Assembly (NCBI RefSeq): GCF_030028105.1
Contig: NC_092396.1
Coordinates: 31,499,474-31,563,473 of the forward strand
Length of the DNA stretch: 64,000 bases
Direction: 5' to 3'
DNA from: Mobula birostris
Taxonomy: Eukaryota
Part shown: positions 3,321-43,028 of the stretch, in pieces
Layout of the letters: every line of letters begins with the position of its first letter
Position numbering within the stretch: position 1 is the first letter of the stretch
Notes under the pieces: model-generated
Database searches by the model: none
Told to the model about the DNA's origin: nothing
The model's input: only the letters and a program-made list of their open reading frames with translations
Made by a program: the position numbers and the translations under genes

Positions 3321-4043
3321 GGAAACTAGTCTACTTTGTCAATTTGATTTTGTTCTTCATGAGCTGTCCCAATTAACCAATGGCCCAATTAACCGGAATC
3401 TACTGTACCTCCACTAGAGGGAATATCTTCTCAATAATCTCTGTGCTTCATTATCATCTCTCATTCATTTGAATTCTGGTAAGTCCAAACTGCTCGATCT
3501 TTCTTCATATTATCAGTCCTGTAACCCAGGATCAACCTGGATAAATTTGTCTGTGCTGCCACCAATACAAATGGATCTTTCCTTAATTATAGACATCAAT
3601 ACTTTCACAGTTCGTCACAGACAGAATTAATAGTGGTCTACACGTTTACGAGATTATTTTCCTACTTTTACATGCCACAAAAGCCAACATTCTCAATAAC
3701 CTGCTGTACCTGCATCCAGCCCTTTATACATCATGTACTGGAACCCCCAGATCCTTTGTACTGCAGCATTTTATGGTTTTACCTCATAATTTGCTTTTAT
3801 ATCTTTCCTCCCAAGATGAATAACTTCTCATTTTGTCACAATGTCCTGTCTATCAAGTGTCTTCCCACTCACATAACCCTTTGTCCCTTTGCTGACTCTT
3901 GAGCCCATCTCACAGTCCGCTAATTCAGCAGTACAATCCTTTGTCCAAGTCAGCCGTGTAAGTTGTAAATAGTTATGGACACAGCATTGAGCATTGTGGC
4001 ACCCCACTAATTTAATGATTGCCAATCCGAATATGAAGCATCA

Positions 4044-4235
4044 ACAACACACAGAAAATGCTGGAGGAATGCAGCAGGCCAGGCAGCACCAATGGAAAAA
4101 AGTATAGTCTACGTTTCCGGCTGAAACCCCATGTAGACAGTACTGTTTTCCATAGATGCTGCCTGGCCTGCTGAGTTCCTCCAGCATTTTGTGTGTGTTG
4201 CTCGGATTTCTAGCATCTGCAAGTTATCCTTTGTT
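4044..4235. mobile_element. Short fold-back PLE-pLTR insertion with 12-bp TSD
   Basis: Inverted pLTR tails; TATGAAGCATCA at 4032-4043 and 4236-4247. Confidence 0.88.
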
Positions 4236-4289
4236 TATGAAGCATCAGCATGTGCCATCCATGTGCATTATGGGCAACATAGTGCAGCC

Positions 4290-4465
4290 ATTTGATCTTC
4301 CAACTTACACACCTTTGGGACGTGGGAGGAATCCAGAGCACCCAGAGGAAAGCAATGGGTCACAGGGAGAACGTACAAACTCCCTGCAGGCAGCACCAGA
4401 GGTCAGGATTGAACCCAGATTTTTAGATCTGTAGAGCTACCGGCTGCACCACTGTGCCACCCTGA
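4290..4465 (-). mobile_element. V-type (HE1-like) tRNA-derived SINE
   Basis: Reverse complement of the ...ttcctctgggtgctctggattcctcccacgtcccaaag core. Related copies near 5100-5250, 8930-9105, 11330-11510, 16680-16900, 18080-18300 and 52765-53045. Confidence 0.7.
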
Positions 4466-4740
4466 GAAATCATGAGTTTGAAGCCCGAAGGATATTTCTG
4501 TTCACTGGTGCATGGCAGCTTGGGCATTACTGAGAACTTTAACTCTGAAATCCAAAGGCAATTATCCTAGTTCAGTATCACGTTTATCTTCTCAGCCTTT
4601 TGGACAGCCTCTGAAAGGGCTTTTCCCAAACAGTGCCCACTTGCCTCTCTTTCAGTGGTTGACCGCCACCTCTGTGCTCTATCTTCTCTTTATCTACCAT
4701 GAGACTGCTTAAAATGTGTCCCCTTATGTCTGCGTTTCAG

Positions 4741-4893
4741 ATTAAGATGTTGGACAAGGCAGTGGCTGCAGCTCACACTTTCTACGTGATGAACCCAGAT
4801 CACCTGGAGATGCGTCAAAATCTGGAGTATTACAAGATGATGGCTGGTGTGAAGGATACTGATTTTAAGGATCTTGAAGCCAAACCCCATATG
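4741..4893 (+). CDS. P3H1: P3H1 exon 2 (153 nt)
   Basis: tttcag|ATT...ATG|gtaatg; IKMLDKAVAAAHTFYVMNPDHLEMRQNLEYYKMMAGVKDTDFKDLEAKPHM. Confidence 0.96.
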
Positions 4894-10800: not shown

Positions 10801-13800
10801 GAAGACTTCCTCCCCACCCATTTCGACTACCTTCAATTCGCTTATTACAACTGTAAGTGCTTTGGGGTGTCTGTGACGACCTCACCTCACTTTCTCATTT
10901 TGCTCAGGTGCTGAGAATGGTTCGCTTCTTCAGTGAATGACATCGTGGTGACAGATCCCGTAAAGGTGTACTCTTAGTTGTTTCCTTCTCTTCCCTCAGT
11001 TCGCACTGAGAAAGAGTTCCACGGTTACTGAGACCCAAAGTGTGAGCAGGAATTTGGAGGGGCATGCAGACAGGTCCTGAATATCAGGGGGCAAATTTTT
11101 GTTAGCACGTTCCCAACATCACTTTATATTTCAATGACACATATCCTTTGGGTCCATGCTGGAGTACTAGCCCCATGGACTCATAGAGAGGTAGGCCCTT
11201 TGGCTCACTGAGTGTGAGCCGATTAACAGCCACCCATTTATTCAGACTCCACTTAAAAAGAAATTTCCCCACATTTCCATCAACTCTCCCCAGATTCTAC
11301 CAGTTGTCTACCCTCCAGGGACGGTATACAGTGGTTAATTAACCCACTGAGCAGCATACCTCTGGGATGTGAGAGGAATCTCGAGCACCCGGACTAAAAA
11401 CCCATTGTAGTCATAGGGGAAAGGAGCAAACTTCAAACGGACAACAGGAGTAAACTGGGGTCTCTGGAGTTGTGAGATAGCAGTTTTACAGCTGCGCTAC
11501 TGCGCCACAAACTTTAAAGTATTTATTATGTGTTTGTGGGTAAGGGTTGTTGAGGCTTGGCCCTTGTGCACACCCCTGCCTTACCACACATGTGACCTGG
11601 AGTGTGAATCTCGTCAGCATATCTAGTTGTTCTGGTACTTCATGGCTGTGTCGTCCCTCGAGCAGCATTGTGAAATGGACAAAGCAGGGTGGTGGTTATG
11701 CTCCCATCCATCACCTTCAGCCATTAATTCAGATGACTGAATTAAGCCGCTCTTTGGTGAAGCAAGAGGATCCATTTTCAAATGTTTTCTAAAGACATAC
11801 ACGTGGTTTGCACTGTTTACTGGATATCGAGGTATATTTGTAAAAGGAGCATATCTAGGGCTATGACAAAAGAGTACGAGCGTGGGACTAATTAGATCAC
11901 AATTCACAAAGACTAGTACAACCACAAGGGGCTGAATGCCCTTCTGTGAAATATGATTAAATGATTAGCACAGATTTGAAAATACTGTAATAAATGTTAT
12001 GATGTGTTTCTGGTCCCTGGTTGCTCCCTTTTTGTTGCAATTTTGGGTGACTTTGAATCGGGGTGGCCCGTAGGTAATGAACACTGAGCTGAACTGAATA
12101 TGCCTAGACTCTTTCGACTTTGTGCTTTATGTTCTAGGTTTTTGTTTTGGTTTTCGTTTGCACAATTTGTGTTTTTTATCGCATGTGGCAGGGTGGGGGA
12201 GGGGGGCTGATTATTTTTCTTTGAACAGGTTCTGTGGTTTTCTTAGTTTCATGGTTGTTTGTGACAAGACAAATCTCAGGGTTGTATATTGCATCCATGC
12301 TTTGATAATAAATCTTCCTTGAACCTTCAATTTTTGAATCTTTCAGTTAAACACTGGTGCATTTTGAATAATATTTGCCGTAATCATCTATGGGAGGGAA
12401 AAAATGATAAAACTGATCTTTCCTGCTCTCAGTTGGACTATTAAGTTAAAAAAAGGCTTCTGTTTTGTAAAAGTGCTTATCCACATTCTGTGAACTCACT
12501 GTTAATTACTTCTCTCGTTTCTCATTTCAGCTGAGAATTATTCCCAGGCCATTGAGTGTGCCAAGACCTATCTGCTTTTCTATCCAAATGATGAAGTGAT
12601 GAATCAGAACCTTCAGTATTACCAGGCAGTGCTGGGAGAAGATTTGTCCGAAGATCTCACGCACAGAGAGGTAGATAGAGTCCAAATATAGTGCTGCTCG
12701 TCTAGCTCATCTAACCCTTAATAACGAAGGGTTATAATAATTCAGAGGATCAATTTTGCAGACACTCCTCCACTTCCTTACGATTATGCCGGAGGGTGTC
12801 AGCCCCAGGATGAAGTTGAGGAGATCATGAGTGGTGTCAGCCCCAGGATGAAGTTGAGGAGATCATGAGTAACATGTATTCCTCCTTTGTTGTAAGACCT
12901 GGTGGCTTACCCTCTTGCTCTGAGCATAATGTAGAACACAGGAAGCCAGTCAGAGTAAAAATCATCCGAAAACAGATCCCCCCCAGTCGCTTTGACAATG
13001 TTCTGCCCTATATCACCAAAGAGCAGATTAAGTGGTTGCCAATACTTAGGGCTATTTCGGTTCCCAATTTTGGCTGCTGAGCTTGGTAAAGAAATTTGAA
13101 GCTCTCAGAGATGTTTCTGAACAATATGACAGGTTTCTGAAGAAACAGAAGGATTGTAGTTTCTTTCTGTCGTTCAGATTCAAAGGCTGTTACACAATAT
13201 CTTAAAAACCACTAAAAATGTCTTCTTCTATCCAATTGGAAATATTCCTCCTCCACCACTAAGCACATCTTTCCCTCTCCACCCCTCTCCGCTTTCCGCA
13301 GGGATCGGTTCCTCCTCAACTCCCTTATCCACACGTCCATCCCCACTGATCTCCCAGCCGGCCTGTTCCTACACCTCATCTCTTGCAACCAGTCAGGGCC
13401 CCAAACAGTCCTTCCAGGTGAGACAACACTTCACTTGTGAGTCTGTTGGGGTCATCTATTGCATCCGGTGCTCCTGGTGCGGCCTCCTCTACATCGGTGA
13501 AACCCGACGCAGATTGGGGGACTGCTTCGTCGAGCACCTCCACTCTGTCCGCCACAACAGACAGGATCTCCCAGTAGCCACCCACTTCAACTCTGCTTCC
13601 CATTCCCATTCAGATATGTCCATACATGGCCTCCTCTACTGCCATGATGAGGCTGAACTCAGGTTGGAGGAGCAACACCTCATATACCGTCTGGGTAGTC
13701 TCCAGCCCCTTGGTATGAACATTGAATTCTCCAGCTTCCGGTAATTCCCTCCACCTCCTTTCCTCTATCCCTATTTCACTCTACCCCCTCCCCCAGCTCC

Positions 13801-16800
13801 CTCATGGTTCTGCCTCCTTCTTCTACCACCCATTGTTTTCAGGGCTATGACGTCAATGCTTCCCCTCCCCCACCCCTTTGTCTTTCAAATTACTGGTCTT
13901 TCAACTGAAGCTACAAGCATTCTTCAAGTCCTTCCCCATCTTTCATTCTTCAGTCCTGACGAAGGGTTCCGGCCCAAAACGTCGACTCATCGTTTCTGAC
14001 TGATGCTGCCCGACCTGCTGAGTTCATCCAGCGTACTGAAAGTGTTGCTTTGCTCTTCCTTCCTCCTCCATCCCTTGTGGATTTTCATCACAACCATTTA
14101 GTAATAAATTTTGCGATTGATAAGATTAAGTGCTTTTTAACATTTTAACTAATCTGCCTGTCACCAAGAAAGCTGGCATTGCCCAGTTACTGTAGTGGTG
14201 CCCCTTCTCTTGACCCAGCCAGCTTCACCTTAGGATCAGGGTGGCCGTGATCACAAAGGGTCCCTTGTATCCACTGTGTAGTGAGTTACTTCATGTTCCT
14301 GCATGAATACTACAGGTTATTGTGGTTTACTCACCTGCAATAATTCCCAATCACTTCCCACAGTATATTCAGACCTACATCAACAACTCACTGCTGGAGA
14401 AAGAGCTGCTGTACTTTGCCAATGAAGTCTTTGGAGTCACTTTTATCGACCCGGTGAGTGTCCATTCCATATTGCTTGCACATCACCAAGGTTTGCTTCA
14501 CAAATAGTCCTCCTTTTGTTTTGAATATTTGCACTGATAAATGAGACACACGATTTTTGTTGTGCTCGTGGGTTCTTTAGCTTTGCAATTTGGAAAGGCA
14601 AGTGACAGAGGTGAAGCAATCTCAGATACCCTCCATCAAAAGCAAGAAACTCACACCGCATGGTGCACTTAGTTATTACAGATGCACTTGCACAGAACAC
14701 TGTGCTGCTTCTCTGCTGCAAAAGGTAATAAACCCACACAAACCATGAACCCTTTGGGCCCTCCGTTGGTTGGGGTCAACCATGGATGTCGCATCCCAGA
14801 TGTCTACCTGATCTGCAAGCCAGGGTGTTGCCCATGCAGCAGGCTCCCCCTCTCCATGCAGCTGATGAATCCAAAAGAATGGCAGAGACCGATACTGTTT
14901 GGCACTGGCAGCACCGCAGGAGTTGCCCGTCAACGTTGAACTCTATCTAGGACTGCCTTAGGGGCTCCAGCTCTGGGTTTATCTTCAGGCTTTATTCCTG
15001 AAGCCTTCCTGAAAAGTTGGTATAGCTGTTAGGCAGTGAAGGTTTGAGATCAGAGTTCTCCTTCTCCTAATGAGCTGCCAGCCACTGTCAGATTAGCAGC
15101 CAAGCCACAAGTAAAGGGCCAGGATTTGGACTTGGTTGTCAGAGGCTATTTGAGGTGCCCGCCATTGGGAGCATTTAATAGGTATTGGGAGCTCACCAGC
15201 CCTGGCTATAACAACCTTAAATGAAGTATTTATGTACATATAATTATCTAATCAGTTGAATATGTGAAATAATACAATCAAGTGGTTATCATATAAACAT
15301 TGTAGGGCACTTCCATTTTTAGCAGCAGAACGCTGCGTACCATCTCACATTTCTTTACCACACATTTTGTTATCATCGACACCATTCTAAGGTGGACTCT
15401 GAGCTTGTGGATCTCATAACCTGCTGTTCAGGCTGGACACGTAACTAAATACAAAAAGCCATTTCCCCTCCCCTATTGTAACTGCCTCCTACCTGTATCT
15501 AGCCATGAAGGAAGCAGCAAAGGCAAGAAAGATAAATAGAAGAGATAGAAGCATGGATCCCATTGAAGCTTTCCTGTGGAATCCTTCATATAAAAGTCAA
15601 AGTGGCTTTTGAGCAAGGTTGCAATTAATGGATACCCTGGCCATCTGAACCTACTAGCGTTCCTTTGTGACTGGTCACAAGAACTGACTGTGAGGTTGGG
15701 AGGTGCTGGTCATAAGCTGATCATTGTGTGAGCTGGGGACAATATTCTGCAAGTACTTAAAAGAAAATCAGTTGTGGTGGGGTGGGGTGGGGTGGAAAGG
15801 CTTCAGCCAATCCAGTGAAAAGTGTGAAACTGATCTGGCTATTTGTTAAAATCAACCGACCACAAAATGGAAGACAAAAACAGAACATGGTGGAAACACT
15901 CAGCAGATCTGTCAGCATCTATGAAGAAGGAAACAGAGTTAACAGTCTGTTTTCAGCATTTTCTTTTTGTTTCTGATTTCAAGCATTTGCAGTTTCTTTT
16001 TTAAAAATTTTATTTATTGAAATTGGGAGAGATCTTTGTCTTTTTTCAACTATCTCACAAGACCATAATGACACCAAGGTCTCCAGTAAAGAATTATTAA
16101 TTTTTTTCCTGCATTTTTAGGACAAGTGGACTCCAGAGAATGTGATACCAGTTAAACTCAAAGAAAAACAAAAGTAAGATTCAAAACCTCACTATGTTTC
16201 CATAACCTGCTTACCTTTTAACCCAGACCCCAACACTGAGTCTGATCATGACAATTGCAGTTAACACATGGTAAACTTGGTCCTGTTTTGACAGTCTGTC
16301 CTGATCCACTTGTGTCCCTCCACAACCAACCTGGAGTGAGAGCTCAGTGGCCTTTTCTGCTCATTGCTGGCAGATTGATGGGCAGTGACATCTTGAAAGA
16401 TTTAGATTTACTTGGCTGATAACAGAAGGATTGAAGGCTCCCAAACGGAGTGCGGACTCCATTGAAACACTCTATTATTATTATTATTATTATTATCGTG
16501 CACTCTGCAGAATGGCATGTTGTGCTGCTCACTTACTTGTGGAGATAGACTCAGAGGGCATTACAATATTTTACATAGAGCATTGTAGAGCACAGAAACA
16601 GGCCTCTCAATCCATTATATCCGTGCTGAACACAACACCAAATTAAACTAACTCTCTTTAAAATTGAAGTACCACGTTCCCACTGCTGTCTGTAAGGAGA
16701 TTGTATGTTCTCCCTGTGACCGCGGGGGTTCCTACTGAGAGCTCCACTTTCCTCTTACAGTCCAAAGACAAATCGGTTGATAGATTAATCGGTCATTGTA

Positions 16801-19800
16801 AATTATCCTGTGATTAGACTCGGGTTAAATTGGGGGATTGCTGGGTGGAACAGCTCAAAGAGCCAGAAAGGTCTGCTTTGTGCTGTATAACAATAAATCA
16901 ATAAATAATATCTTATGTTTCTATCCTGGGAAAAAGATTCTGACCATCTACCTTATTTATGCCTCATAACCGTATAAACTTCGATCAGATTTTCCGCCAG
17001 CTGCTGATACTCCAGCAAAACAACCTCCTCTTATAGTTTATTCTCTATAAGCCAAGCAGCACATTTCTGAACCTCTTCTGAACCCTTTCCAAAGTTTCCA
17101 CATCCCTCTTGCACTGGGGCTGCCCAAGCTGCACACAGTACTCCAGTGCAGTCTAACCAAAGTTTCATGGAAGTTATGGAAAAAACTTAACTGAATCTTG
17201 TAACAGGGCAGAAAGGGAAACTGCTGCCCGGATCTCCGAAGAAATTGGGAACTTGATGAAAGAGATTGAGAACTTGGTGGATGAGAAAACCAAGGAATCA
17301 TCTGAGCTTGTGAAGATGGTGAGAGAGGGTGAGCATCTGTCATCTGTAATGTCCGGTTACTTGCTGATCTTGGGTGGGAGTGAATGGGGAGTCATACTAA
17401 ATTTGCTTAATTGTGTAACATGGGTGTTATTGACCTATCTACCCTTGAATAAACTGTTTCACTGCTTTCCTTCAAATGATCTCAATCCATTTTCATGTCC
17501 ACATGCAGGTAACATCTGTAGTAAAAGAAGCAGAATTAATGCCTCAAGTTGAAGTTGCTTTGATCGAAGCCATTAACTCTGTTCTTTTCCCTCTCCAGAT
17601 GTTGGTTATTTCCAGCATTTTCTGTTTTTATCTCTTATTTTCAGTTTCTGTAGACTCCTATTTTTTGTCAATGATCTTTTTAAAGATATTATGCACACTG
17701 AAGCTTTTTCCTGCCTTTGAAACCATCTTCTGCTGCTTGCTACCCATGGTCTATATCTCAGTTGCTTCAGCATGTTTAAACTTAGTTTTTCTTCCCCACA
17801 TTCTCTATTTCATGGCTACAGAATTCATCTTGCAGATGGCTGCTATAACACAAACTCACCTATCAACAAACCTCCTCCCACACCTCCACGTGATATGCTG
17901 CCTAACTATTCCCAAACTCCTGTGCTCCTGCTCTAGGGGGTCCATTGTTGTATGACAATGTCCAGGTTGTCATGAACGCACGGCTGTTGAATGGAACTCA
18001 GAGGGTGTTGCTCGATGGTGTGATCACGGACAAGGAGTGTGAGGAGATGCGCTTCCTCTCCAATGTGAGTATCTCCATCTACTGCGGCGCAACTCGCAGA
18101 TCCGGCGACCCAGGTTTGATGCCGACCTCCGGTGTTGACTGCGTTCAATTCAGATGTTCTTTCTGTGACCATGTGGATTTTTGGTGATGCTCCCATTTCT
18201 TCCTACATCCCAAAGACAGGAAGGTTGGCAGGTTAATTTGACCAGCATAAGTTACCTATAATGTGCAGGTGGATGGCAAAGTCTGAAGGGGATTGATGAG
18301 AACGTGGAAGGAATAAGTAGGGACTAGCATAGCGTTTGTGTAAATGGACCAAAGAGCAAGTTTCCATGCTGTAGAGTCCAGTGACTATATATGTGAGCAA
18401 GTACACAAAGGTATGTGGGAGATTGAAAGGCTAATTAATGTTGGTTTAGACCTTATCACCTACAAACCTTCAATAGTTGAATAAAAAAGATTGCATTGTT
18501 AAATGCCATATAACATTTCATACTTTAAGATTACTGGTTGCAATGGAGTTAAAGAAGTTAAAGAAGAATATTCAAATGGTTGAATATTTAAGTATGCACA
18601 CCATCAGGATCTAACAGTGACTGCACTAACTGCAAGGTTCTGATGTAGACCATCTGAAGGCAGACACAGGAAGGGATCACCTTGAGGGCATGGCCTCCCA
18701 AACGCCTCACTGCCTGCATGCACTGTGAACTCTGTTCTCCAGGGCTTGTTCCAATTCCTGGCTGGGGATGAGATGAAATCATTGGACAGAAGGTACCCAG
18801 CACAGGAAAGAGTTCAAAGGAGGTTCACAAAGGTGATTCTGGGATTGAAAGACTTATCATACGAGGAGCTCTGGCCTTGTACTCACTGGAATTCAGAAGA
18901 ATGGGCGGGGGATCTCATTGAAACGTATTGAATGTTGAAAGGCCATGATAGTGTGGATGTAGAGAGGATGTTTCCTATGGTGGGGGAGTCTAAGACCAGA
19001 GAACGCAGCCTCAGAATAGAGGGACGTCCATTTAGAATAGAGATGAGGAAGAATTTCTTTAGCCAGAAAGTGGTGAATCATTGGAATTTGTTGCCACATG
19101 TGGCTGTGGAGGCCAAGTCATTGGGTATTTTTAAGGAACCCACACAAAATGCCAGAGCAACTCAGCAGGGCTGGTAGCATCAATGGAAGAGAGTACAGCT
19201 GATGATTTGGGCCGAGACCCTTCGCAGAGGTTGATAGGTTCTTGATCAGTAAGGGCACGGGGTGGGGGTGGGGGGCGGGGGGGCGGGGCGGGAGACGGAG
19301 AAGGAGAAGGGAGGAGATTGGGGCTGAGAGGGAAATGGATCAGCTATGGTGAAATTGTGGAGCAGACTTTATGAGCCAAGTAGCCTATTTCTGCTCCTAT
19401 ACCTTATGGTCTTATGGTCTTATTTCCCAGAACATCAGTATGCGGTGTCTGCGTCTATTTTTATACGCCTTTCTGCTGGTTTTCCGGGTGTTGAGTGGTG
19501 TTGGAGAGCTTATACATTGTGAAGTATGAGAATCACAGTCTATTACTCTCCACCAATGACTCGATATTTGCAATGCTCAGCTCAGCAATTGAATGGATTT
19601 CTTAAACAGTAGAGGAGCACTATCAAAAGCTTTCAGCCAAGTGACAGGGATTCCACTGATTGAAGGAGCTAAGGTCAAGGGCAGTTTAATACATTAGGAT
19701 GATCATGATATGATAGCCTACTGAACAGAGAAGTGTAACATTTCTTCTAACAATGTTTAAACCCTTCATTTCCTCATGCTGGACGCTAGGCTGCAGCTTC

Positions 19801-22800
19801 AATGGGCGATGGCTACTATGGGAAGCCTTCTCCTCACACACCCAATGAGCGATTCCAGGGAGTGACAGTACTCAAAGCATTAAAGGTGAGTGAGTCTGCA
19901 CTGTTAGAGACGAAGTCTATAGATCATAGAACATAGAACAGTATGGCACAGGAACAGACACTCCTGTCCATGTTGCCTGTGCTAAACACAAGGTAAAATG
20001 AAATGAAATCTTCTCTGCTTGCAAATGGTGGATATCCTTCCATTCCCTGCATATTCATGTGCCTACCCAGCAGCTTCTTAATTTCTACCATTGTATCTGC
20101 TTCCACCATTACCGCTGGCTGCCCAATCCTAGTATCTACTACTTTCTGTAAACACTTGCGCACCCATCTCCCTTAAACTATCTCTCTCTCACCTTAAATG
20201 ATTGTCCTTTAGTATCTGATGTTTTGACCCTGGGACTCCCCCTAGTCCCCAAAATCTGGTGCTGATGCCATTACACCACTGGCCGGCAGCTTTCTCTGTG
20301 CTGAGCACTTTGTTCACTTCCAACGTTTTAGTTCAGACACTGAGCGACCAGCAGCAGCTCTGTCCTTGTGCAATTATGAATGGTAAAATGTCCTTAAAGC
20401 AGAATTTTTCATTTTATCACACTCTCAGGCACTGAAATTTCACATCCACTGTCCTTTCCATGCCAAGCTAAAAGTAAACACCTAATCAGCTGTTTCATTC
20501 TGACTGAAGCGGAAAATCAAATTAATTTAGAAGAACAATAATTAAACCGAAGTAAAACAGATAACTGAATAACCAGTTGTGCCTTATGAACAGTAAATGC
20601 TCGAAAAATTTAGTGAATCAGTTAGCATTTGTGGAATGAGAAAGAGTCCAATGTTTCAAGGCTGAGGCCCTTAGAACTGAAAGACCAATTGTACATGTCT
20701 GGTCATTAGCCTGATCTTGTTAACTTTGATTTTCTCTCCAAGGATGCTGCCTGTCCTGCTGATTATTTCCAGTATTTTTCATTATTATTTGGTTTAAAAT
20801 TACTGCATTTTGTTTTGATTTTCAACTAGTCATACAATATTTATCTTGCATCGATACTTAAGCTGGAGCAACGCCATGTAATGCCTAAAATTATATTGAT
20901 TTTCCCTAGTTTCCACTTATTGCCTGATTAACACCTGGCAGACATTAAAGTCCACCTTTCATTTTTACATCCATGACCTTCCGAACGGGAATTGGGAAAA
21001 TCCAACACACTATTGCAGTCTGACACATCCTTCCTTAAGTGTTTTTCTGGTTTCAGAACACTCCAGATCAAACTAAGTAAACTATCAGAACATTAACTCA
21101 GTAGTTTTGGAAGAAGAGAAGCAAGTATTAGAAATGATAAAGTCTTGAATAGTTGAAGGAATAAACTTCAGCTAACAAATTTAAGCCCTTTATCAAATAC
21201 ATTTTTGTAACTTCAGCCATTGCAAGCTTTTTACTCTTTCAGTTTCCGACACTTTAAGTCACTGCATTATTTATTTGTTGTAAGTAATTCATGAGGTTTG
21301 TGTTCTTGTTCTGAATGAATCGAAGGGTGATGATTTCGCTTTTCTGGTTTTCTCTAACATGTACAAATCTGCCTTTCTGGCAGCTTAGTCAGGAGGGTAG
21401 GATCCCACTTAAAACATCCAAGCTGTTTTATGACATCAGTGAGAAAGTTCGAAGGATCATCGAGTCTTACTTCCGGCTGGAAAACCCACTCTACTTTGCC
21501 TACTCGCATCTTGTCTGTCGGACTGCGGTGGAAGGTAACAACCTTTGACTTAACTCTAGAGTTACTAGACTGAGTGGTAACAGCTGTCCCCGTTTGCTGT
21601 TAGTTCATTATGTTTCATACCACGTGTCAGTCAATGCTGAACTCTCTACTGTGCAAGTCCCTTCACCTGAAGGGCTGAAGTTGATGGAGAAAGTGGCGCA
21701 ACACCAGCTTCCCAAGGACAGTTAGGTACGGGCAATAATGCTGGACTTGCCAACAATGCCCACATCCTGGTAAATAAAATAAAAGGAGCACATATACAGG
21801 AACTACTTGCTAATGTTTACACTGTGTGCACCACGGCCTCTAGCAGAACAATGAAAGAGGGATTTAATCTGCATAATCGGAATCGGGTTTACTGACACTG
21901 ACATATATTGTGAAATTTGTTCTCTTGTGCCAGCAATACAGTGCAAGATGTAAAAAAATGACTACAAGTTACAATAAAAATTAATAAATAGTGCAAAAGA
22001 GTTATAGCAAGGTGGTATTCATGGGTTCACGGGCCATTCGAAAAATTAGGGCTGAGGGGGACATGCTGTTCCTAAAACAGTGAGTGTGGGTCTTCAGGCT
22101 CCTGTACCTTTTCCCCGATGGTAGTAACAAGAAGACAACATGTTCCAGGTGTTGAGGGTCCTCAATGATGGGTGCTACCTTCTTGAGGGTGAAGGAATAC
22201 TAAGTCATTTTGACTTTCCTGCTTCCCTCTATCTTCAGCATAAATGGACACCATTTTAGCCCAGTGTGTCCCTGCTGGCCTAATGGCCAGTGGCCAGTGA
22301 AGAGCTGGATACACAGGAGAGTGTTTGCATTATATCACCCAGGACATAGAACAGTACAGCATGGGATTGGCCAATCAGCCCACAATGTTGTGCTCATCCT
22401 GATGCTAATTTGTACTAAATGTCCTCCCCCTATATATCATTCAAATGCCTCCATTCCTTTCATATTCATGTGAGTATGTAAAAGCATCTTAAACTCAGCC
22501 AGACTGCTAGCTTCCCATGCTGTCTCAGTGATCCATTCCATGCACTATACTCACAAAATGCTGGAGGAATTTAGCAAGTCAGACAGCGTCTGAGGAAAGC
22601 AATAAACAGTCACCATTTCAGGCTGAGAGCTTTTATCAGATAGAACATAGAACACAGAATATTGCAGCATGGAACGGCCTTTGACCTCGTGTTGATCTTT
22701 TAACTTACTCCAAGATCAATCTAACCCTTCTCTTCCACATAGCCCTTCATTTTTCTTTAATCCACATGCCTATCGAAGTCATTTGAATATCCCTAATGTA

Positions 22801-31296: not shown

Positions 31297-32651
31297 TTCT
31301 GTGTACAGCTACTCACAATAGGGCCACTTGGTGCTTTGCAACCTGACACAAGAGCTGTTGGTTTTGATGTTTAATCATTCCTGGTAATTGTCTCCCAAAT
31401 TAGGAGCTCAAAAGTGTGGATCTCCATTTCCCCCTTGGCTGATATCCCCATCCGGTTTGATGGTATTGATAGCCCAGGCCGAGCATCTTATTCACCATAT
31501 TCCCTGAACTTCTCCCATAATCTGTTGCCTCTGGTAATATTCATCCAGCACATGACCCGAACCCCTATACCTGGGTCATCAGTAGCGTGCAGAGTTTCCC
31601 CCGAGCACGTTAGCTCTCGCAGAGGATGGGACGGTCAGACGCAAGTAGTCAGAGCTACCGGTCGCTGGTGTGCAACCTTGTCCAGCACCAAAGCCCCAGT
31701 TCCCCCTTGGCAGATGCTGGAACAGTTCCAGATCACTTCCATCTACATGGATTGGGACCTCAGTCATTTGAAATGAAGGTGGAGTTTCTGTCAATATTTG
31801 CAGCCAGTATCTTTAAAGGAGGGTTAAACTCCTGCTGTATTGACCCATCCTTGTCTGGTACACTCCTGATTCCTGGTCAGTGTCTCGCAGACACTTTCTT
31901 GTCCATTTCTTTGCTCCATTGTTCCCTAATCCTCCACAGAAGCCTACAAATTCCAGCATCTGTAGTCTTTTGAGTCCCTATCCTTGTTCTTTGCTTGCAA
32001 CTCTCTGTATGGTGATGTGTTATATTGTGTGTGTGTGCGCGCGCGGTGGGGAGGGGGTACTTCAAAACCCTCAAAATGCTGCCTTTATCTGATTTTTGAC
32101 ACGGGGGGAGGGTCACGGTGACAGTCAAGTAATAGCTCTGAAGTTCCGCAAACACGACAACTGTAGCAATTAGGATCTTCGCTGGTCTTTTGAGGTGCTA
32201 TACAGTGCAGCCACTAATGGAGGCCTAGTAAGGGCAAAGAAGGATAGAGTCTTTAAACATTTGCTTACTTCTTATCTAAGATATAAACAGAAGATACTGG
32301 ACATCATCTGCAAATCAGGCGGCTCCAAAACTTACTGCCCGTATTTCTGATGTGCAACTTCCACAAGTGTCGATATCTTTAAATGAGAGGTTGTGTTTGC
32401 GTGTATGGAGACGGATTATCCCAGAGAGGCCAGCGTATTGCAGCTTGCCAGCACGTTGCTATTGATGCATACCCATCTGTGTTTACATTCCCTAAAACCT
32501 CCTGCACTTCATCAGTTGTGGTGACGTTACCCACATCCCATCCAACCCTTTTTAAATGTATGTGCACTCAACTCTTTAAGTTCTTAAAGAACTTAATTAT
32601 TTCTTTATCTATCTTTCCTCTCCTTCCCTCTCTCCGCTTCTCCTTCTTCCC

Positions 32652-32802
32652 NNNNNNNNNNNNNNNNNNNNNNNNNNNNNNNNNNNNNNNNNNNNNNNNN
32701 NNNNNNNNNNNNNNNNNNNNNNNNNNNNNNNNNNNNNNNNNNNNNNNNNNNNNNNNNNNNNNNNNNNNNNNNNNNNNNNNNNNNNNNNNNNNNNNNNNNN
32801 NN
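32652..32802. other. Assembly gap (151 N)
   Basis: N run flanked by pyrimidine-rich low-complexity sequence. Confidence 0.99.
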
Positions 32803-32864
32803 TCCCTCCCCACACACACAGATAGTCGGTCATACATGCACAATCCTTCATTACAGCAGTGTCT

Positions 32865-33300: not shown

Positions 33301-33360
33301 GACTAAGTCAGGTGGGGGAGCCGGCCCAAGTCGCCGACCACTCGACCACGGCCCCCGGCC

Positions 33361-33550
33361 GAGCACCGGGCACCCGCCCCCCAGCGAATCTCTCCGAGCG
33401 CCGGGCGCCCGCCCCCCACTGAATCTCTCCGAGCGCCGGGCACCCGCCCCCCACTAAATCTCTCCAAGCGCCGGGCGCCCACCCCCCACTGAATCTCTCC
33501 GAGCGCTGGGCGCCCGCCCCCCACTGAATCTCTTCGAGCGCCTGGTGCCC
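33361..33550 (+). repeat. GC-rich 35-bp minisatellite, ~5.4 copies
   Basis: GAGCGCCGGGCGCCCGCCCCCCACTGAATCTCTCC starting at 33361, 33396, 33431, 33466, 33501, 33536. Confidence 0.95.
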
Positions 33551-36550: not shown

Positions 36551-38069
36551 CTGTGCTCTCAACGCACAGCCTCAAAATTCCCAATGAATGATCCTTCTTG
36601 AGTTTGAGTAGTCATGGGCAGGGTTCCTAAGAGTTAGTAGAGACTCTGCATTTCATTAAAGGAAGGTTTGAACACATCCTTGAACCTTGGACCTCTCATG
36701 CACTAAAACATGAACTCTTAATCTCCCAATCTACTTCTTTGTGACCCTTACACTTTACTTGTCTGCCTGCATTGCCATTCATCTGTAACTCTAACTCTAT
36801 ATTCTCCATTCCAATTTCCTTTTTACTACCTCAGTGTATGGAATGACCTGTCTGGATGGAATCTTCTCACTGTGTGTGCCTTGGTACAAATGAAAATAAT
36901 AAACTGAAGAAGATAGCCCCAGCAAACAATGCGACCAACAGTGACATCCTTCAGACAGTTCACAAAACTACTTCCTTTACCTCTTCTTTCAAATATGATT
37001 CTACTGTGATTGGAAGTTGTGATTTACATTTTGTCGGTGTGTCGATTGAGCGATCAGGCATTTTGTTGTCTCCGAGGGAACTCGGTGAGGTTTGGAATGG
37101 AGCCCGTGGCCTGAAGGCCAAAGAACCTGGAGACGGGGTGCGAGCCCATGATCGACTAAATTTCTTGCTGATCTCGCTGAGCAAGATTGAAATCAATGAG
37201 GACAAGAGCAGAAGGTGAGCCGGTGTTACCGTCTGCCTGTGTTCGATCAGTCTCTTGCTTCCCCTTGGCAGAGGATGGTGCTGGAGTCTTGGAACCCAGG
37301 CAGGGTTTAATTGACATGGTTATGGCTTGGACTCTGCAGTCCATTTACATGTGTTTCTGGTTTCTGATTACTCCTTTCTTATTGCTATTTTGTGCAATTT
37401 TGATCGGGACAGACTTGCTCTGCTGTCACGAAAAATGGAACGGAGCTAAATTGACCATACCTAGACTCTTTCAAAGAGTCTGTGTTTTGATGCTGTACGA
37501 TCTGTGCCTTTTTCGCTCATTTTTTGTCACTTGCATGGCTTCTTCTTTTTTCTATGTGTGTTTGAATTTTTTCTTTGAACGTTTTCCATGGTGTTTCTTT
37601 GTTTTGTGGCTGCCTGTGGGAAGAAGAACCTCAGGGTTGTATACTGCATAAATACTTCTATAATAAATGTACATTGAAATCTGAACTCCAATTCCATTTC
37701 CTATCTTCACCTGTGAATCTCTTCCTATCACAAATCTCAGAATAGAGGTTCTGTTTGGGACAAGGATACAAGTGGCATAGTCAGCCCAATGAAGCTGACG
37801 GAGGGTAACTATGAACCCCGTGCTAGAAAGGTTGGTCAGAGGGAGCCAATGATTTTGGTGCACCAAGCCTTCCTGCTGGTATGGTGAATTTTGCAGTGAC
37901 AGATATTTCCTGTTCCTCTATATGCTTAATGTAAGTGATCCAGGTCTTGGAAGCAAAAAGGATCACTGTTACTCATTAGGCCAGGACTGAGGGAATCATC
38001 TCTACAAAATCTTTTTCTCAATCAGCCAAAGGCTATCTTGGGGCATAGAAGGAAATGGCAAATTTCATA

Positions 38070-38190
38070 AACTCAAGAAATTCGTAGATGCTGGAAATCT
38101 GGAGCAACTTGGAGGAACTCAGCAAGTCAGGCAGCATCTATGGAGGGGAGTGAACTGTCGACATTTCAGGCCGAGACCCTTCATCAGATT
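38070..38190 (-). mobile_element. PLE pLTR tail beginning at a hammerhead core
   Basis: Minus strand CTGATGA-a-ggg-tctcgg-cct-GAAA-t-GTC-gacag...gatgctgcctgacttgctgagttcctcca. Confidence 0.8.
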
Positions 38191-39176
38191 TCATCACTGG
38201 TGGCTGCCTTGCCAAAAGCTGGCTCCTAACATATGGGAGGTGGTTCACATTTTCCAAACTCTCACCAGTGTGGCCCAGATTACCAGAGGGCTTTAGTCTG
38301 CAGATGTTCTGTGCAAAGCCCTTCCTCTCAACTGCCTCATTGAAAGTCTCAACCATGGCCTAGAGCACAAGCAAACACAGGCCTTGTCCATAGGCTGGAG
38401 TTCAGGTGATTTTGGTTCTGGAGTTTAGTCAAGATTGGTTGAATAGTTTCCCATTAGTTCTGAAAATTAGCACCACTTCCCCAGGAAGTTTGTTGGAGAT
38501 GAGTTATAATATTTTGGTGAGTAAGACAGAGAGATATGTTGCGGGCAAGAAACAGCCTTATTTGACTCTGGTCTTCACTGAGAATGGATCTGTTTACACC
38601 TACTTCCTTAGTATCATGATTAGCAAAGTGTTGAAAGCCCTGCACAAAACATTAGTTATGCTTATTATATGTTGTTCCGATCACCAGACCACAGGAAGGA
38701 TGTGCAAGCTTTAGAAAGGGTGAAAAGCAATTCAAATGTATGTGTTGTCGCTTTGGAGTGTATCAGCTATAAGGATAGGTTGGACTAACTTTTCTCTGGT
38801 GTATCAGAGGGGCAGACTGATAGACCATAAGACATAGGAGCAGAATTAGGCTATTCAGCCCACCGAGTTTGCTCCATCAATAGAAGTATACAGTATTGTA
38901 AGAGGGATATCATCAGAAGAAGGATCCTGTTGAAGTTTGTCTTCCTTACTCTTCTCTTGCCAATTACACCTTGGAAGAAGATTATGTCCATTCACATCAT
39001 GGTGCTGATATCATTCAGGAGGTTCCATTCTGTTAAGGCGTATCGATTATCATTTTCCTTTAAACTGGACATCGTGCCTCCCTCATTACAAATGATGGCA
39101 ATACTCACATTACCAAACTAGGAGAGCCGACATGCTGTTGGGACTGCCCGTAAGATTCCTGACATTGTTGGTCCAA

Positions 39177-39395
39177 GCAACACTCACGACACGCTGGAGG
39201 AACTCAGCAGGTCGGGCAGCATCCGTGGAAAAGATCGGTCGACGTTTCGGGCCAGAACCCTTCGTCAGGGCTCCGAAGGGTTCCGGCCCGAAGCGTCGAC
39301 CAATCTTTTCCACGGATGCTGCCTGACCTGCTGAGTTCCTCCAGCGTGTTGTGAGTGTTGCTTTGACCCCAGCATCTGCAGATTATTTTGTGTTT
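39177..39395. mobile_element. Young fold-back PLE-pLTR insertion: 90-bp inverted arms, 9-nt loop, 13-bp TSD
   Basis: Arms 39175-39264 and 39274-39363; ATTGTTGGTCCAA at 39164-39176 and 39396-39408; CpGs retained. Confidence 0.95.
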
Positions 39396-41154
39396 ATTGT
39401 TGGTCCAAAACTTCATGTTATGCAGCGGAGGAATGGAAAACAAGAAAAAAAAACTGCAGATGCTGAAAACCTGACATATAAACAGAAGATGCTAAAAACA
39501 GTCAGTGGGACAGGCAGCATCTGAGGTAAAGAGAAAAAGTTAACATTTCGGGTCTGGGACCTTTCATTTAGAACATTTGATGGTGAATGTCCCTTCAACA
39601 GTGTTATGTTTTGCAACTTCAAAACATTAACCTAATTCAAGTGAAGATGGGAGTCCGGGAATGCAGGTCTAGTTCATTCCCTACTTCAAGCGAAGTGCAC
39701 ATATAACACATGGTAGCATGATCACGTATGTAATTAATGTATTTTTACATATCACGTGTAATTAATTATTTAAATGAACAAGAATGCTCAATCAAGCAAT
39801 AAATATCCAAGATCTCTCAAATATTACTGAAATTTTAAATACACAAGTAGCTAGCAACAAATAGATGTAGAGAAGGTAAGAGGCCAGGGAGAGGGGTCCA
39901 GATGGGTTGGGAATCATTGAGGTGGGAGAAAAAGTCCACATTTTGGGCTGAAGATTCCTGGTCACAGTAGGCATGGAAGCAGAGGCAGTAGGAGAGGAGT
40001 TCTATTTCATGTCAAGTCAGAATTCATTAAGATGGGGATGTAGATGATAGAAGATAACATTTCTGTTGAGGACTGATTGTTCAACATCAGATAGAAGATG
40101 GTGAAAACACAGAAAACGGGTGGAACTGAGAGAGGCGGGGTCAGGAGAAACGGCAGAGGGAGAAAGGTTAGAAGGATTATTGGAATCCAAGATCTATTGA
40201 CATTTGTGATCTTAGATGTCAAAAAGGAAGAGGAAATATGTCTGTGGTAGCACCAAGTATGCGGAGATTAAAGTAGGACTGCAGATCATAATAGCTTGGA
40301 GACAGAGCGAGCCAGTGCTGTTGAAGACAGACATGAGGAGCATGCATGTGCTACAGAATGTGATAAGAACACAGCCTCAAGAAATGCTCGGTAGTTGATA
40401 ATTGGTAATAGGCTTATTTTTCTTCTAAGTACTGAGAAACAGAGAAAAACTTCGTTTTGCAAGCTATCCATACATATCATTTGGAAACACAAGTACATTG
40501 AGGTTGCACAACTGAAAGGTCGATAACAGAACGTAGCACATAATGTTACAGGTACATAGAAAATGCAGTACAGGTAGACCATAAAGTGCAAGGACCACAA
40601 CGAGGTAGATAGAGGAATCAAGAGTTCAGCTTTACCATACAAGAAATACGTTCAAGAGTCTTATAACTGCAGGGTAGAAGCTGTGTTTCAGCTTTGTGTT
40701 ACGCGTTTGAGATCTTGGGTTTTCCAAATGTGTGGGTGAACTGTCAGTAGAAAGGGACACGTGCTGAGTTAGAGTTAAGGACATTTGCTGAGGAGGGAGA
40801 TGTGTCTGTGGAAGTGAGTCTTGGTCTACACCTTGTTGTAGACCAGAAGTGAAAGGGAAAGCACTGAGGGTGAACAAGGCATAAGGGACAGACAGGAGTC
40901 TCCCCAGCGGTAGGGGTGCTTTGGATGGACCAACAAGGTGAATGTACAAAGGTGCCAAGTCCCCATTTGTAAAGGAAAATAGTCTCCAAGTGTCTTGGCC
41001 AATATACCCTCTTCAATCTATAGTACTGATTGGCTAATCGTGTTAACATTTGCTATTTCTGGGATTTATTGCCCACAGATTGATTGCTGTATTGGTCTAT
41101 ATTACAACAGCAAATGTGAGCCAGAGGTATCACGAGATAATACTTGAATAGGAG

Positions 41155-41616
41155 ACTCATGCAAAATTCTGGTGGAACTCAATAAGTCAGTCAGCATTTA
41201 TGGAGGGAAATAAACAGTCGGTGTTTCTTCAGGATTGGAAAGTGAGGGATTGGATGCCAGAATAAGAAGGTGGGAGGACAGGAAGGAGTATAAGCTGGCA
41301 GATTAGATAAAAGGGAAAGTGGGTGGGTGGGGAAGTGGGTGAAGTAGAAAGCTGGGAGGGGGTAGGTGGAAGAGATGAAGGGCTGAAGAAGAAGGAATCT
41401 AATAGGAGAGACAGTGGACAATAGAAGAAATAGAAGGAGGAGAGGAATGTTCTTGTTCTGGCCTATGACGACTCATTTCCAGTCCTAATGAATGGTCTCA
41501 GCCCAAACTGCTAATTGTTTATTCCCATCCATAGCTGCTGCCTGACTTGCTGAATTCCTCCAGCATTTTGTGTGTTTTGCTCAAGGTTTCCAGCATCTGC
41601 AGAATCTCTTGTGTTC
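41155..41616. mobile_element. Longer fold-back PLE-pLTR insertion
   Basis: Inverted pLTR followed by a sense pLTR tail; degenerate 16-bp TSD aatacttgaataggag (41139-41154) / aacatttgaatgggag (41617-41632). Confidence 0.8.
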
Positions 41617-42012
41617 AACATTTGAATGGGAGTTCTTTCAAGCTATTCTGTCAGATGCTTGAACTAAATTCTTGCCATGTCTACACAGTGAATCATAGGT
41701 GGTGTCTGTGAATCTGAGGCCACCTTCTGGACTGGAAGAGAAGCACCCAGAAATCATTGGCCTTGGGCAGGGAGGACTGTGTGTATCGTGCCGGCAACTC
41801 ACCAAAGGCTGTAAAGCCCTTGAATAATTCCACAGTGCACAGAACCAAAGGCAGAAGCTGCTGAGGTGATACCTAGTTGGACAGGGTACGGTGGGGAAGA
41901 GGATGAGGGATGGCTGTCAATGGCCGCTGTTAATTTGTTGGGGTTGTGATGGGGACCTGGGTTACAAGTACATTTTGTAGTGGAGGGAAGGGACAGGATG
42001 GGGATTGGGAGT

Positions 42013-42231
42013 CACACATACAAAATGCTGCGGAAACTCAAAATGTCGGGCAGCATCATTGGAAAGAAGTAAACAGTTGCTATTCCGGTTTGAGACAACA
42101 CATCAGGTCTCAGCTCACAACCTTGACTGCTTATTCTTTACCATCGATGCTGTTTGACCTGCTGAATTCCTCCAGCGTTTTGTGTCCGTTACTCTGGAAT
42201 TCCAGCATCTGAAGAATCTTTTGTGTTTAGT
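42013..42231. mobile_element. Older fold-back PLE-pLTR insertion
   Basis: Inverted tails; TTGGGAGT at 42005-42012 and 42232-42239. Confidence 0.8.
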
Positions 42232-43028
42232 TTGGGAGTTAAGTTGGGGAGGAAGGAACGACCTACAGGTCAGACTGAACTGGACATACTTTCATCATAG
42301 AGTGCCCAACAGTAGCGGGTTCCCTGTGCAGAACACCACAGCCCGGAGCCTGGTCCGGTTGGTCCACTATAGCTATTGACGAAGCAGGTCTCTCATTGTT
42401 GCTTAATGCTCTGCCATCTACAAGCACAGGGATGTGAATACAGTTTGCAGAAGTGGTATCCGGATGTTGTCAGGTGTGTGGGAATAACATGGCAATTACT
42501 GGAGCAGCACTGGTCCAGAAATGGAAGCAGAGATCCACCATGACAGCAGGGAAAGCTAAATTCAAGGCAATGAAAAAGATATGGAATTCACTGGTACTGG
42601 TATTGGTTTCTAACAAGTAATTGCATTGTTATACAAACTCATCCTGTTCACTAATATTATTCAAGGAAGGAAACTGTCACACTTCCTCGTCCTTCACCAT
42701 ACAACGTGTCTTCAGCCATCTCTCTCAGCCTTACTGCATTTATTTATCGACTCTTTCCTTGATCTCTGCCTGTTCCCATGGTGCTTTACACAACATCTGG
42801 TTATGTTTCCTTTGCTTGGTATGAATGTTGCACTTTTGAAGCAGGCAAGAATCTCCGACTGGCGCAGTGAGAGACTGAAGATGTCCTTGAACACTTCCAC
42901 CAGTTGGTAGGAACAGGATCTCAGTGCCCTACCAGAGTCATCATCAGAGCCTAATGCCTTGCAAGACTTCACTGTCTTGAAAGATGTTCTGATGTTCGCC
43001 TCCAATACAGAGATCAGAGGGTCACCAG

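Follow-up and report, generated by a model that had tools for sequence, protein, structure and literature searches.

The 64,000-nucleotide stretch of the Mobula birostris genome analyzed here (hereafter, the window) carries 3'-end copies of a Penelope-like element (PLE) of the GIY-YIG type. Four insertions, called e1 to e4, each consist of an inverted 3' end that lacks the terminal tail and a tail-bearing 3' end, joined head-to-head. An original prediction based on the sequence placed such insertions at 4044-4235, 39177-39395, 41155-41616 and 42013-42231, and all four are present there (Table 1).

Fold-back insertions in the window

Arms were placed on a pLTR profile built from the window's own copies. 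On this profile, hammerhead helix I starts at 97, the core is at 102, the predicted cut follows 129, the tail-less end is at about 197, and the tail end is at about 232. In e1 to e4, tail-less arms end at about 194-198 and tail-bearing arms at about 231-233, so a tail of 30 to 40 nucleotides is found on one side only. The inverted arm had been described as slightly shorter than its partner. It does lack the tail (the last ~35 nucleotides), but it is not always the shorter arm, being 295 nucleotides long in e3 versus about 168 for the sense arm. In all six fold-backs of the window (e1 to e4 and the older e5 and e6), the tail-less arm extends further 5' and owns the loop.

Inverted, 5'-truncated copies beside a main copy are a feature of PLE insertions, and seven head-to-head pairs at most 60 nucleotides apart occur among 27 arms, whereas 20,000 random placements gave 0.73 on average and never more than 5. 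In one of the seven, 54130-54219 paired with 54273-55428, both arms carry tail sequence; this pair looks like chance neighbors from two subfamilies. Overall, the window spans a continuum of solo, tandem, short two-armed and long two-armed copies.

Table 1. PLE-derived features of the window, with positions on the pLTR profile
Feature	Coordinates	Strand	Description
e1 inverted tail-less arm	4044..4130	-	Profile about 109-197; covers helix II of the hammerhead and the region of the cut site
e1 sense arm with tail	4131..4235	+	Profile about 125-232
e1 TSD	4032-4043 / 4236-4247		12 bp, exact; matched in length by 0 of 1442 null pairs
e2 inverted tail-less arm	39177..39272	-	Profile 98-197
e2 sense arm with tail	39274..39395	+	Profile 106-232; 94% identical to partner arm
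e2 TSD	39164-39176 / 39396-39408		13 bp, exact; matched in length by 0 of 1442 null pairs
e3 inverted tail-less arm	41155..41449	-	Long; runs up the 3' UTR for about 240 nt
e3 sense arm with tail	41450..41617	+	Starts at profile 67; hammerhead core mutated
e3 TSD	41144-41154 / 41622-41632		11 bp, one mismatch; p 0.0014
e4 inverted tail-less arm	42013..42110	-	Profile 98-about 197; decayed
e4 sense arm with tail	42106..42231	+	Profile 111-232; overlaps inverted arm by 5 nt
e4 TSD	42005-42012 / 42232-42239		8 bp, exact; p 0.0055
e5, older fold-back	20590..20819		Absent from the original prediction; inverted arm 20590-20682, to profile 94; sense arm from about 20701
e6, older fold-back	15872..16000		Inverted arm reaches about profile 126; sense arm begins outside the hammerhead, at about 174
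Solo tail-bearing copy	38069..38187	-	Profile 102-232; 7-bp TSD, exact (38062-38068 / 38188-38194), p 0.015
Solo tail-less copy	19134..19223	-	Profile 107-198; inside another repeat; TSD absent
Long 5'-truncated PLE copy	13197..14052	+	GIY-YIG end and pLTR, tail-less; e2 subfamily
Long 5'-truncated PLE copy	61876..62847	+	GIY-YIG end, pLTR and tail; 2-nt deletion of e1
Longest PLE remnant	1524..3021	-	RT C-terminal half, linker, endonuclease and pLTR; pLTR end resumes at 2-34, past an inserted LINE-like piece
Long PLE copy with tail	54273..55428	+	About 500 nt of foreign sequence inside; short tandem piece follows at 55434-55489

Identity of the element and its subfamilies

Long window copies link these arms to an ORF encoding an RT with a C-terminal GIY-YIG endonuclease, the end of which was found by tblastn upstream of the same pLTR. 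The endonuclease end is 76-87% identical to ray PLE proteins (five of eight matches). Related PLE proteins carry RT motifs and GIY-YIG, the latter scoring just below the Pfam cutoff in three of four scanned ray PLE proteins (19.6-20.9 versus 22.6). Pfam returned no family for the window's own endonuclease ORF, and the three of nine ORFs that matched something matched no PLE family. A Cys-x4-Cys-x2-Cys motif is present within the linker joining RT to endonuclease in P0003, P0004 and the window ORF at 2040-2792; a zinc-finger-like Cys motif at this position is given for Neptune and also for Nematis (PMC8557442), so the motif agrees with the Neptune clade and is shared with Nematis. The earlier reading of e1 to e4 as PLE pLTR ends of the partially inverted kind typical of PLE insertions is right.

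Diagnostic indels assign the arms of e1 to e4 to at least three subfamilies. In e1 and e2, the two arms have subfamily marks in common, and the best match of each arm is its partner; the e1 arms are 86% identical, and a 2-nucleotide deletion is common to both and to the long copy at 61876. Neither of the two diagnostic deletions occurs in e3 or e4, whose arms are only 70% and 61% identical, respectively. Because these arms are no closer to each other than to other copies, layout and TSD are what support their common origin. In a tree of 18 arms, the e2 arms and the long endonuclease copy at 13197 form a clade (99/96), which is the only starred branch among 15 inner branches, the other 14 being unstarred.

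The family is huge, with 35,104 to 65,534 contigs aligned to one 601-nucleotide stretch in each of four sequencing runs. Motif scans found no loci in viral contigs and none in metagenome contigs, and a scan of prokaryote genomes gave one locus, a chance match within a bacterial coding region.

Target-site duplications

About 1,440 random site pairs served as the null for an automatic boundary search. A TSD beyond chance surrounds the whole unit in all four named elements, and the same search found none above chance for e5 or e6. For e3, alternatives to the tabulated TSD are 6 bp (exact, p 0.044) and 13 bp (two mismatches). Flanking repeats no commoner than chance would have counted against the original prediction, and all four exceed the null. 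The predicted lengths of 8-16 bp stand in part: the observed lengths are 8-13 bp, and the search of e1 to e4 gave no 16-bp TSD at up to two mismatches. One run, X5, which is from another organism, carries both flank-to-element joins of e2. No empty e2 site was found in the sequencing runs, among which X9 and X10 lack cover on the left flank.

Hammerhead motif and positions of arm ends

Arm alignments and loose ends of contigs contain a minimal hammerhead motif that fits a published description (PMC4209133). The motif is decayed in most arms. Among e1 to e4, the sole intact core is in the e2 inverted arm (about 39237-39272), where helix I is weakened; the e3 inverted arm has a 15-nucleotide deletion in the hammerhead. 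Scanned in full against Rfam at E<=1, the window gave no matches, hammerheads included. None of the six hammerhead and tail pieces that were folded surpassed shuffled sequences (z -1.19 to +0.89), so claims about structure rest on the motif match.

The profile positions of the arm 5' ends (inverted/sense: 109/125 in e1, 98/106 in e2, 98/111 in e4) bear out the prediction that these three short copies turn around inside the hammerhead. The e3 sense arm likewise restarts just before the hammerhead, as proposed, at 30 nucleotides before helix I. A test of breakpoint clustering at the hammerhead, which the original prediction had called for across the genome, was made within the window and placed eight of nine fixed arm ends in its 5' half (p about 0.02-0.03). 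None of the nine lies at the cut site (profile 128-132): eight extend 4-31 nucleotides upstream of the cut, and one extends further. Because all nine are upstream, the template was uncut there. In vitro, hammerhead mutants of an anole element do not alter insertion, and no anole RNA-seq reads are reported to end at the cut (PMC11167929). Of the proposal that cleavage or structure sets the switch point, the cleavage part is therefore not supported, and the enrichment of pivots in the hammerhead region stands. The pile-up at the 5' edge likely reflects local structure or an RNA end there, not self-cleavage.

Junctions between arms

Junctions that are shared between insertions would indicate a replicating family, and unique junctions would indicate by-products of individual insertions. 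The junctions differ in all six window fold-backs. At least six further distinct junctions, read in contigs among 12 listed entries of 225, have tail-less/tail ends at 163/166, 143/152, 123/162, 93/207, 100/195 and 100/190. Within the window and these contigs, the comparison thus favors per-insertion by-products. Consistent microhomology at the pivot was also considered and rejected, being clear in one of four elements.

In the sequencing runs, the pivot of e2 alone was assayed. Summed contig depths at 39264 (inside the hammerhead) and 39274 (the e2 pivot) were 364,615/311.6, 582,552/686.9, 290,631/51.7 and 255,559/28 in the four runs, where contig depth is not copy number, palindromes break contigs, and none of the pieces listed spans e2. 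Depth along the arm is not a truncation profile either, because mismatches in e2 clip alignments. Contigs crossing the e2 pivot with tiny indels number eight in run X1 and seven in X5, in three forms of near-identical spacing, and none in X9 or X10; one X5 contig crosses it ungapped, with 11 differences in 97 nucleotides. A small subfamily that shares a junction around the e2 pivot may therefore exist.

The suggestion of a MITE-like or retrozyme-like family mobilized in trans is not supported, given the unique junctions, the presence of at least three subfamilies, and an e2 pivot that is not amplified in four runs; the first and last of these also led us to reject a single MITE family. MITEs have terminal inverted repeats that reach both ends and a fixed TSD length. 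Here, a 35-nucleotide unpaired tail is present at one end, and the TSDs measure 8, 11, 12 and 13 bp.

Possible origins of the hairpins

We consider it probable that e1 to e4 derive from an abundant GIY-YIG PLE as strongly 5'-truncated insertions that arose one by one: in each, reverse transcription was primed from both ends of a staggered cut, and the two short cDNAs became joined head-to-head. Once the PLE enzyme had made the staggered cut, the DNA ends would each prime reverse transcription, using a pair of adjacent internal start sites that probably lay on one RNA. The tail-bearing primer would trail, because the tail-less arm reaches further 5' in every window fold-back. End-joining of the truncated cDNAs would close the center, and a stagger of 8-13 nucleotides would give rise to the TSD. 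The resulting hairpins are likely dead on arrival. In vitro, the enzyme of the anole element cuts both strands and extends them, and its start points are a pair of neighboring internal sites whose distance apart equals the tail (PMC11167929), these data being from a Poseidon element of a lizard. We found no demonstration of the joining step for any PLE in the portions of the literature examined, and completion of PLE integration has been called not yet validated (PMC11167929).

A pyrimidine tract followed by YAG, resembling a splice acceptor, lies exactly at the hammerhead 5' edge in all five long copies. In Drosophila Penelope, an intron ends at helix I. We tentatively entertain the possibility, to which we give only a minor share of our confidence, that the arm ends piled up at the 5' edge reflect a genuine end of the RNA, or a processing site, distinct from the cut; the enzyme would start nearby and run off this end, with both DNA ends priming on a single RNA. 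Starts at the initiation motif would then be only 100-135 nucleotides from the RNA end, with the tail-bearing primer trailing. If so, thousands of stubs across the genome would preserve a fossil record of two unsolved steps in Penelope integration, those of the second strand and of joining.

It is unlikely that the hairpins instead arise by copy-back, in which one cDNA (or antisense RNA) folds at the self-complementary hammerhead region in each insertion and primes itself. Palindromes at inverted PLE junctions have been read as self-priming (Arkhipova 2013, PMC3846280), at 13948-13990 in a long copy the hammerhead region forms a single long hairpin (z only -1.19), the e4 arms overlap, and the e1 pivot is at the near-palindromic helix II. 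However, in six of six cases the loop is part of the tail-less arm, and a copy of a tail-less cDNA gains no tail without a further switch. Moreover, e2 shows a single added base without overlap, and overlap is lacking in e3 as well. If snap-back followed copying of the entire hairpin, the restart should fall near profile 135, which none of the four elements exhibits.

Several small families of replicating non-autonomous hairpins, moved in trans by the PLE enzyme, are more doubtful still. Both e2 and e4 are 219 nucleotides long with the same inverted-arm end (98), contigs cross the e2 pivot in two runs, and rotifer pLTR sequences suffice for trans mobilization (PMC3846280). Against this, no two window junctions are alike, e2 clusters with a copy that carries the endonuclease and not with the other short elements, depth at its pivot is about a thousandth or less of that at the hammerhead in all four runs, and head-to-tail hammerhead repeats like those of non-LTR retrozymes are absent; also, a palindromic template recopied from internal starts would not obviously regenerate both ends. 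Self-cleavage that creates an RNA 5' end, at which cDNAs run off and the pivot is fixed, is very improbable despite the three short-copy pivots within the motif and the cleavage of the anole hammerhead when protein is present (PMC11167929), given the arm ends upstream of the cut and the neutral mutants noted above.

Comparison with known systems

The hairpin layout is an already published PLE insertion pattern, of which e1 to e4 are the shortest form. The endonuclease-positive units described by Arkhipova, Yushenova and Rodriguez (2013, PMC3846280) and Craig et al. (2021, PMC8557442) are likewise 5'-truncated with an adjacent inverted copy and have a hammerhead in the pLTR, a tail at one end (31 bp in the former, 30-40 bp in the latter) and a TSD of about 8-10 bp around the unit. 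Those units are longer, whereas both arms here are reduced to 90-300 nucleotides, leaving a bare hairpin. The portions of these papers considered here give neither a breakpoint table nor which arm reaches further 5'.

As things stand, our observations therefore have little significance beyond a described pattern. Their modest value is as a natural data set, from a huge family, that bears on how PLEs finish integration. Two regularities, namely arms ending at the hammerhead 5' edge and a tail-less arm reaching further, are useful as cheap genome-wide tests. Such hairpins are also easily mistaken for MITEs or RNA genes in shark and ray genome annotation.

The PAc element, a Poseidon of Anolis carolinensis (Frangieh et al. 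2024, PMC11167929), resembles the Mobula PLE in having a hammerhead followed by about 70-105 nucleotides to two ends spaced by the tail, and in its AT-rich target starts. It is of the Poseidon clade and its ORF starts at helix II, whereas the Mobula PLE has the linker motif given for Neptune and Nematis; head-to-head joining is not part of the in vitro results considered here. Metazoan PLE minimal hammerheads (Cervera and De la Pena 2014, PMC4209133) share the core, the extra base before helix II, the G-C first pair of helix II and the palindromic two-base helix III. Their helix II has 7-8 bp versus 3-4 bp in the window, where most copies are decayed and activity is putative. In Schistosoma, paired minimal hammerheads, lying on opposite strands at distances of 100-700 bp, were ascribed to truncated PLEs (PMC4209133).

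Non-LTR retrozymes, reported in the one cartilaginous fish sampled (bioRxiv 10.64898/2026.07.22.740005), are also non-coding, pLTR-derived and hammerhead-bearing. We rejected this class for e1 to e4, because it requires head-to-tail units that each have a hammerhead, complete and of type I in two or more consecutive ones, whereas each of these elements is one head-to-head pair in which no more than one core is intact. Circular RNA and self-cleavage also mark the class, and a search for RNA data sets with the sequence listed none above a share of 0.05. Searches by title and abstract, with most subscription journals outside their scope, gave nothing relevant on a palindromic non-autonomous Penelope family in sharks or rays or on twin priming in PLEs. 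In L1 twin priming, both nicks prime on the RNA, producing an inversion inside one TSD-bounded insertion whose pieces have no sequence overlap. In contrast, both arms of e1 to e4 copy the same 3' segment.

Fold-back insertions and their source element

The four predicted fold-back insertions (e1 to e4), in which an inverted tail-less arm is joined head-to-head to a sense tail-bearing arm, are real, lie where the original prediction placed them, and are a further, ordinary example of an insertion pattern that is already known. The window was searched with a 236-position profile of the pLTR (Penelope-like element, or PLE, terminal repeat) end, made from 14 window copies; an extended version was also made. 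On this profile, helix I of the minimal hammerhead starts at position 97, its core at 102, and the predicted cut falls after 129. Tail-less arms end at about 197 and tail-bearing arms at about 232. Apart from the copies tabulated here, the window holds one tandem piece and five long copies. Four of these long copies extend as far as the coding region.

Fold-backs and solo short copies of the pLTR end in the window. Arm 5' ends are profile positions (tail-less/tail-bearing); target-site duplications (TSDs) were compared with random site pairs.
Feature	Position	Arm 5' ends	TSD
e1	4044-4235	109/125	12 bp, exact; 0 of 1,442 null pairs equally long
e2	39177-39395	98/106	13 bp, exact; 0 of 1,442 null pairs equally long
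e3	41155-41617	about 240 nt upstream of profile start/67	11 bp, one mismatch; p = 0.0014
e4	42013-42231	98/111	8 bp, exact; p = 0.0055
e5, older fold-back, from profile search, not in original prediction	20590-20819	94/about 111	none above chance
e6, older fold-back, from profile search, not in original prediction	15872-16000	about 126/174	none above chance
Solo short copy	38069-38187		7 bp
Solo short copy, nested in another repeat	19134-19223		none above chance

TSDs up to 6 nt from the element boundaries were searched for automatically, and about 1,440 random pairs of sites served as the null. A TSD around each of e1 to e4 was recovered beyond this null (p = 0.0055 or lower). Head-to-head neighbours number 7 among 27 window arms, versus 0.73 expected and a maximum of 5 in 20,000 random placements; in one of the seven pairs both arms carry tail sequence, and its two members are probably unrelated.

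An endonuclease domain lies at the end of the reading frame 13160-13744. Comparison with longer proteins gave 8 matches among 52 candidates, five of them 76-87% identical across the whole query and belonging to Hypanus and Mobula rays. The ray proteins bear RT motifs, a Cys-x4-Cys-x2-Cys linker and GIY-YIG, the last detected in three of four proteins scanned, at scores slightly below the Pfam cut-off. In four window copies, tblastn places the same ORF immediately ahead of the pLTR; we conclude that the arms represent the pLTR end of an endonuclease-positive PLE. Its linker sequence suggests a Neptune-like element, an assignment that follows PMC8557442. The PLE endonuclease end also occurs within ray gene models P0001, P0002 and P0008 (annotated as kinase-domain protein, mucin-2 and lysosomal glycoprotein), so the element is being pulled into host gene annotations.

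Several further arrangements were observed. An inverted arm (to profile position 98-102 or so) and a sense tail piece (170-227) at 22549-23445 are separated by 750 nt with another repeat intervening, and are possibly a fold-back split by later insertion. A very old, weak fold-back candidate of a different subfamily lies at 17500-17674, where the inverted arm scores only 25. A LINE-like piece (35-1524; endonuclease-RT ORF at 50-1156, with a Pfam Exo_endo_phos_2 match) is inserted in the longest PLE copy, whose pLTR it breaks at about profile position 169-174. After the tail, ATGA or TATGA follows at four of seven ends (4235, 38069, 55428 and 62847). In two of these ends the motif belongs to the TSD and is therefore target sequence. 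It resembles the element's own hammerhead core, and may reflect endonuclease target preference.

Insertion mechanism

Each fold-back has two arms, one tail, one TSD and its own junction. The tail-less arm extends further 5' in all six window fold-backs (p = 0.016 by sign test), two of which align poorly. For a related anole element, PMC11167929 describes an enzyme that cuts and extends both strands, and two adjacent internal start sites that bound the tail. On analysis of this layout, two-ended priming at both sites, with early stops and an end-joined centre, is the probable origin of the fold-backs. After a staggered cut, each 3' end would prime at one of the two start sites; on one RNA, the downstream primer would trail the upstream primer, both reverse-transcription strands would halt early, and end-joining would close the centre. 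The junctions show a 5-nt overlap in e4, one extra base in e2 and zero overlap in e3. Copy-back is an unlikely explanation.

PMC3846280 reports an inverted pLTR adjoining the unit, a one-sided 31-bp tail and 8-10 bp TSDs. It further describes trans-mobilisation and inverted junctions with palindromes. PMC8557442 and PMC8969392 outline a general insertion scheme in which the tail is 30-40 bp long, and PMC4209133 describes minimal hammerheads in close pairs on opposite strands. Non-LTR retrozymes, by contrast, are head-to-tail repeats (bioRxiv 10.64898/2026.07.22.740005); this identity was rejected because the window elements are not so arranged. Our literature search found no paper that treats the present ray family or clustered breakpoints. 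The family may well already have a name in Dfam or Repbase, which lay outside that search.

Junctions and source subfamilies

The original prediction allowed for a replicating non-autonomous family, against which differing junctions, at least three source subfamilies and a collapse of depth at the e2 pivot (the junction between its arms) all speak. Each arm of e1 and of e2 has its partner as best match (86% and 94%, respectively). The e1 pair has its own 2-nt deletion after the hammerhead and the e2 pair a 4-nt one; e3 and e4 have neither. In a tree, the e2 arms cluster with the long copy at 13197 that carries the endonuclease (support 99/96; the sole starred branch among 15). The distinct deletions and this grouping imply that no fewer than three source subfamilies gave rise to the layout.

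Contigs from four public sequencing runs, on four organisms, were aligned to 39000-39600 at 82% likeness, giving 54,211, at least 65,534, 35,104 and 39,941 records; such numbers indicate a very large PLE family. A replicating element carrying the e2 junction would be expected to hold depth through its centre. However, summed contig depth, which is not copy number, at 39264 (hammerhead, inverted arm) and 39274 (first base beyond the pivot) was 364,615 and 311.6, 582,552 and 686.9, 290,631 and 51.7, and 255,559 and 28 in the four runs. Single-copy flank depth was 5 in run X1 and 12.2 in run X5. The pivot is crossed by 8 X1 contigs and 7 X5 contigs, with a 2-nt loss or 1-nt gain, in three forms, and one X5 contig spans it without gaps (11 differences in 97 nt). 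These contigs either belong to a small subfamily or arose independently at a preferred site. Small replicating families are an improbable explanation of the fold-backs. The X5 organism also has e2 itself, joined to its flank on each side (with 5 differences over 200 nt and 4 over 228 nt), which makes this insertion old.

Among the 12 listed of 225 rows with in-between sequence, seven cross the centre, all unlike one another: six parsed by script (163/166, 143/152, 123/162, 93/207, 100/195 and 100/190) and one judged by eye, whose arms meet near 125. This sample is small, support-selected (15 of 349 joints listed) and skewed, since most of the family resembles the inverted arm of e2 more closely than the sense arm. 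In contigs joining 39343 to 39307 and 39394 to 39307, the segment after the hammerhead is repeated head-to-tail over a short length, so tandem stubs exist alongside inverted ones.

Hammerhead and pivot position

Nine arm ends are fixed by a partner arm, TSD or host repeat; this count leaves out e5 and e6, which align poorly, and long arms, which end far upstream. Eight lie within profile positions 93-134 and one in the preceding 42 nt (p = 0.02, one-sided; p = 0.03 under exponential truncation), so real enrichment in the hammerhead region is weakly supported. Pivots fall outside the motif in e6 and most contig junctions. Of the proposal that ribozyme cleavage or structure sets the pivot, the cleavage run-off part is very improbable: none of the nine ends lies at the predicted cut (128-132), and arms extend past it, so the RNA template was uncut there. 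This agrees with the anole element, for which PMC11167929 reports normal insertion by hammerhead mutants and no RNA reads ending at the cut. Folding gave no significant structure.

Ends cluster at the hammerhead 5' edge (98, 98, 102, 106, 107, 109 and 111; contigs 93, 100 and 100), exactly where all five long copies carry a pyrimidine tract plus YAG. In Drosophila virilis, PMC4209133 places the 3' limit of the Penelope intron at the 5' end of helix I, and the start site lies 46 nt upstream of a 75-nt intron (PMC2377424). Splicing is a mere lead, because no constant upstream exon was seen in the window's short arms and two arms retain the tract. If the pile-up truly marks an RNA end, it would raise the weight of an otherwise ordinary finding.

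Other features of the window

Exon-like frames at 17157-17330 (coiled-coil-like) and 30928-31296 (acidic; no Pfam match) suggest that the region lies within or near a host gene. Broken LTR-retroelement-like remnants at 43783-47054 include a gag-like frame and an integrase-core match under the Pfam cut-off. A 19-nt repeat array (27174-28187) has at least 40 overlapping registers, and a GC-rich 35-nt tandem repeat (33324-33550) adjoins a GC-rich stretch and assembly gap near 32650-32800.
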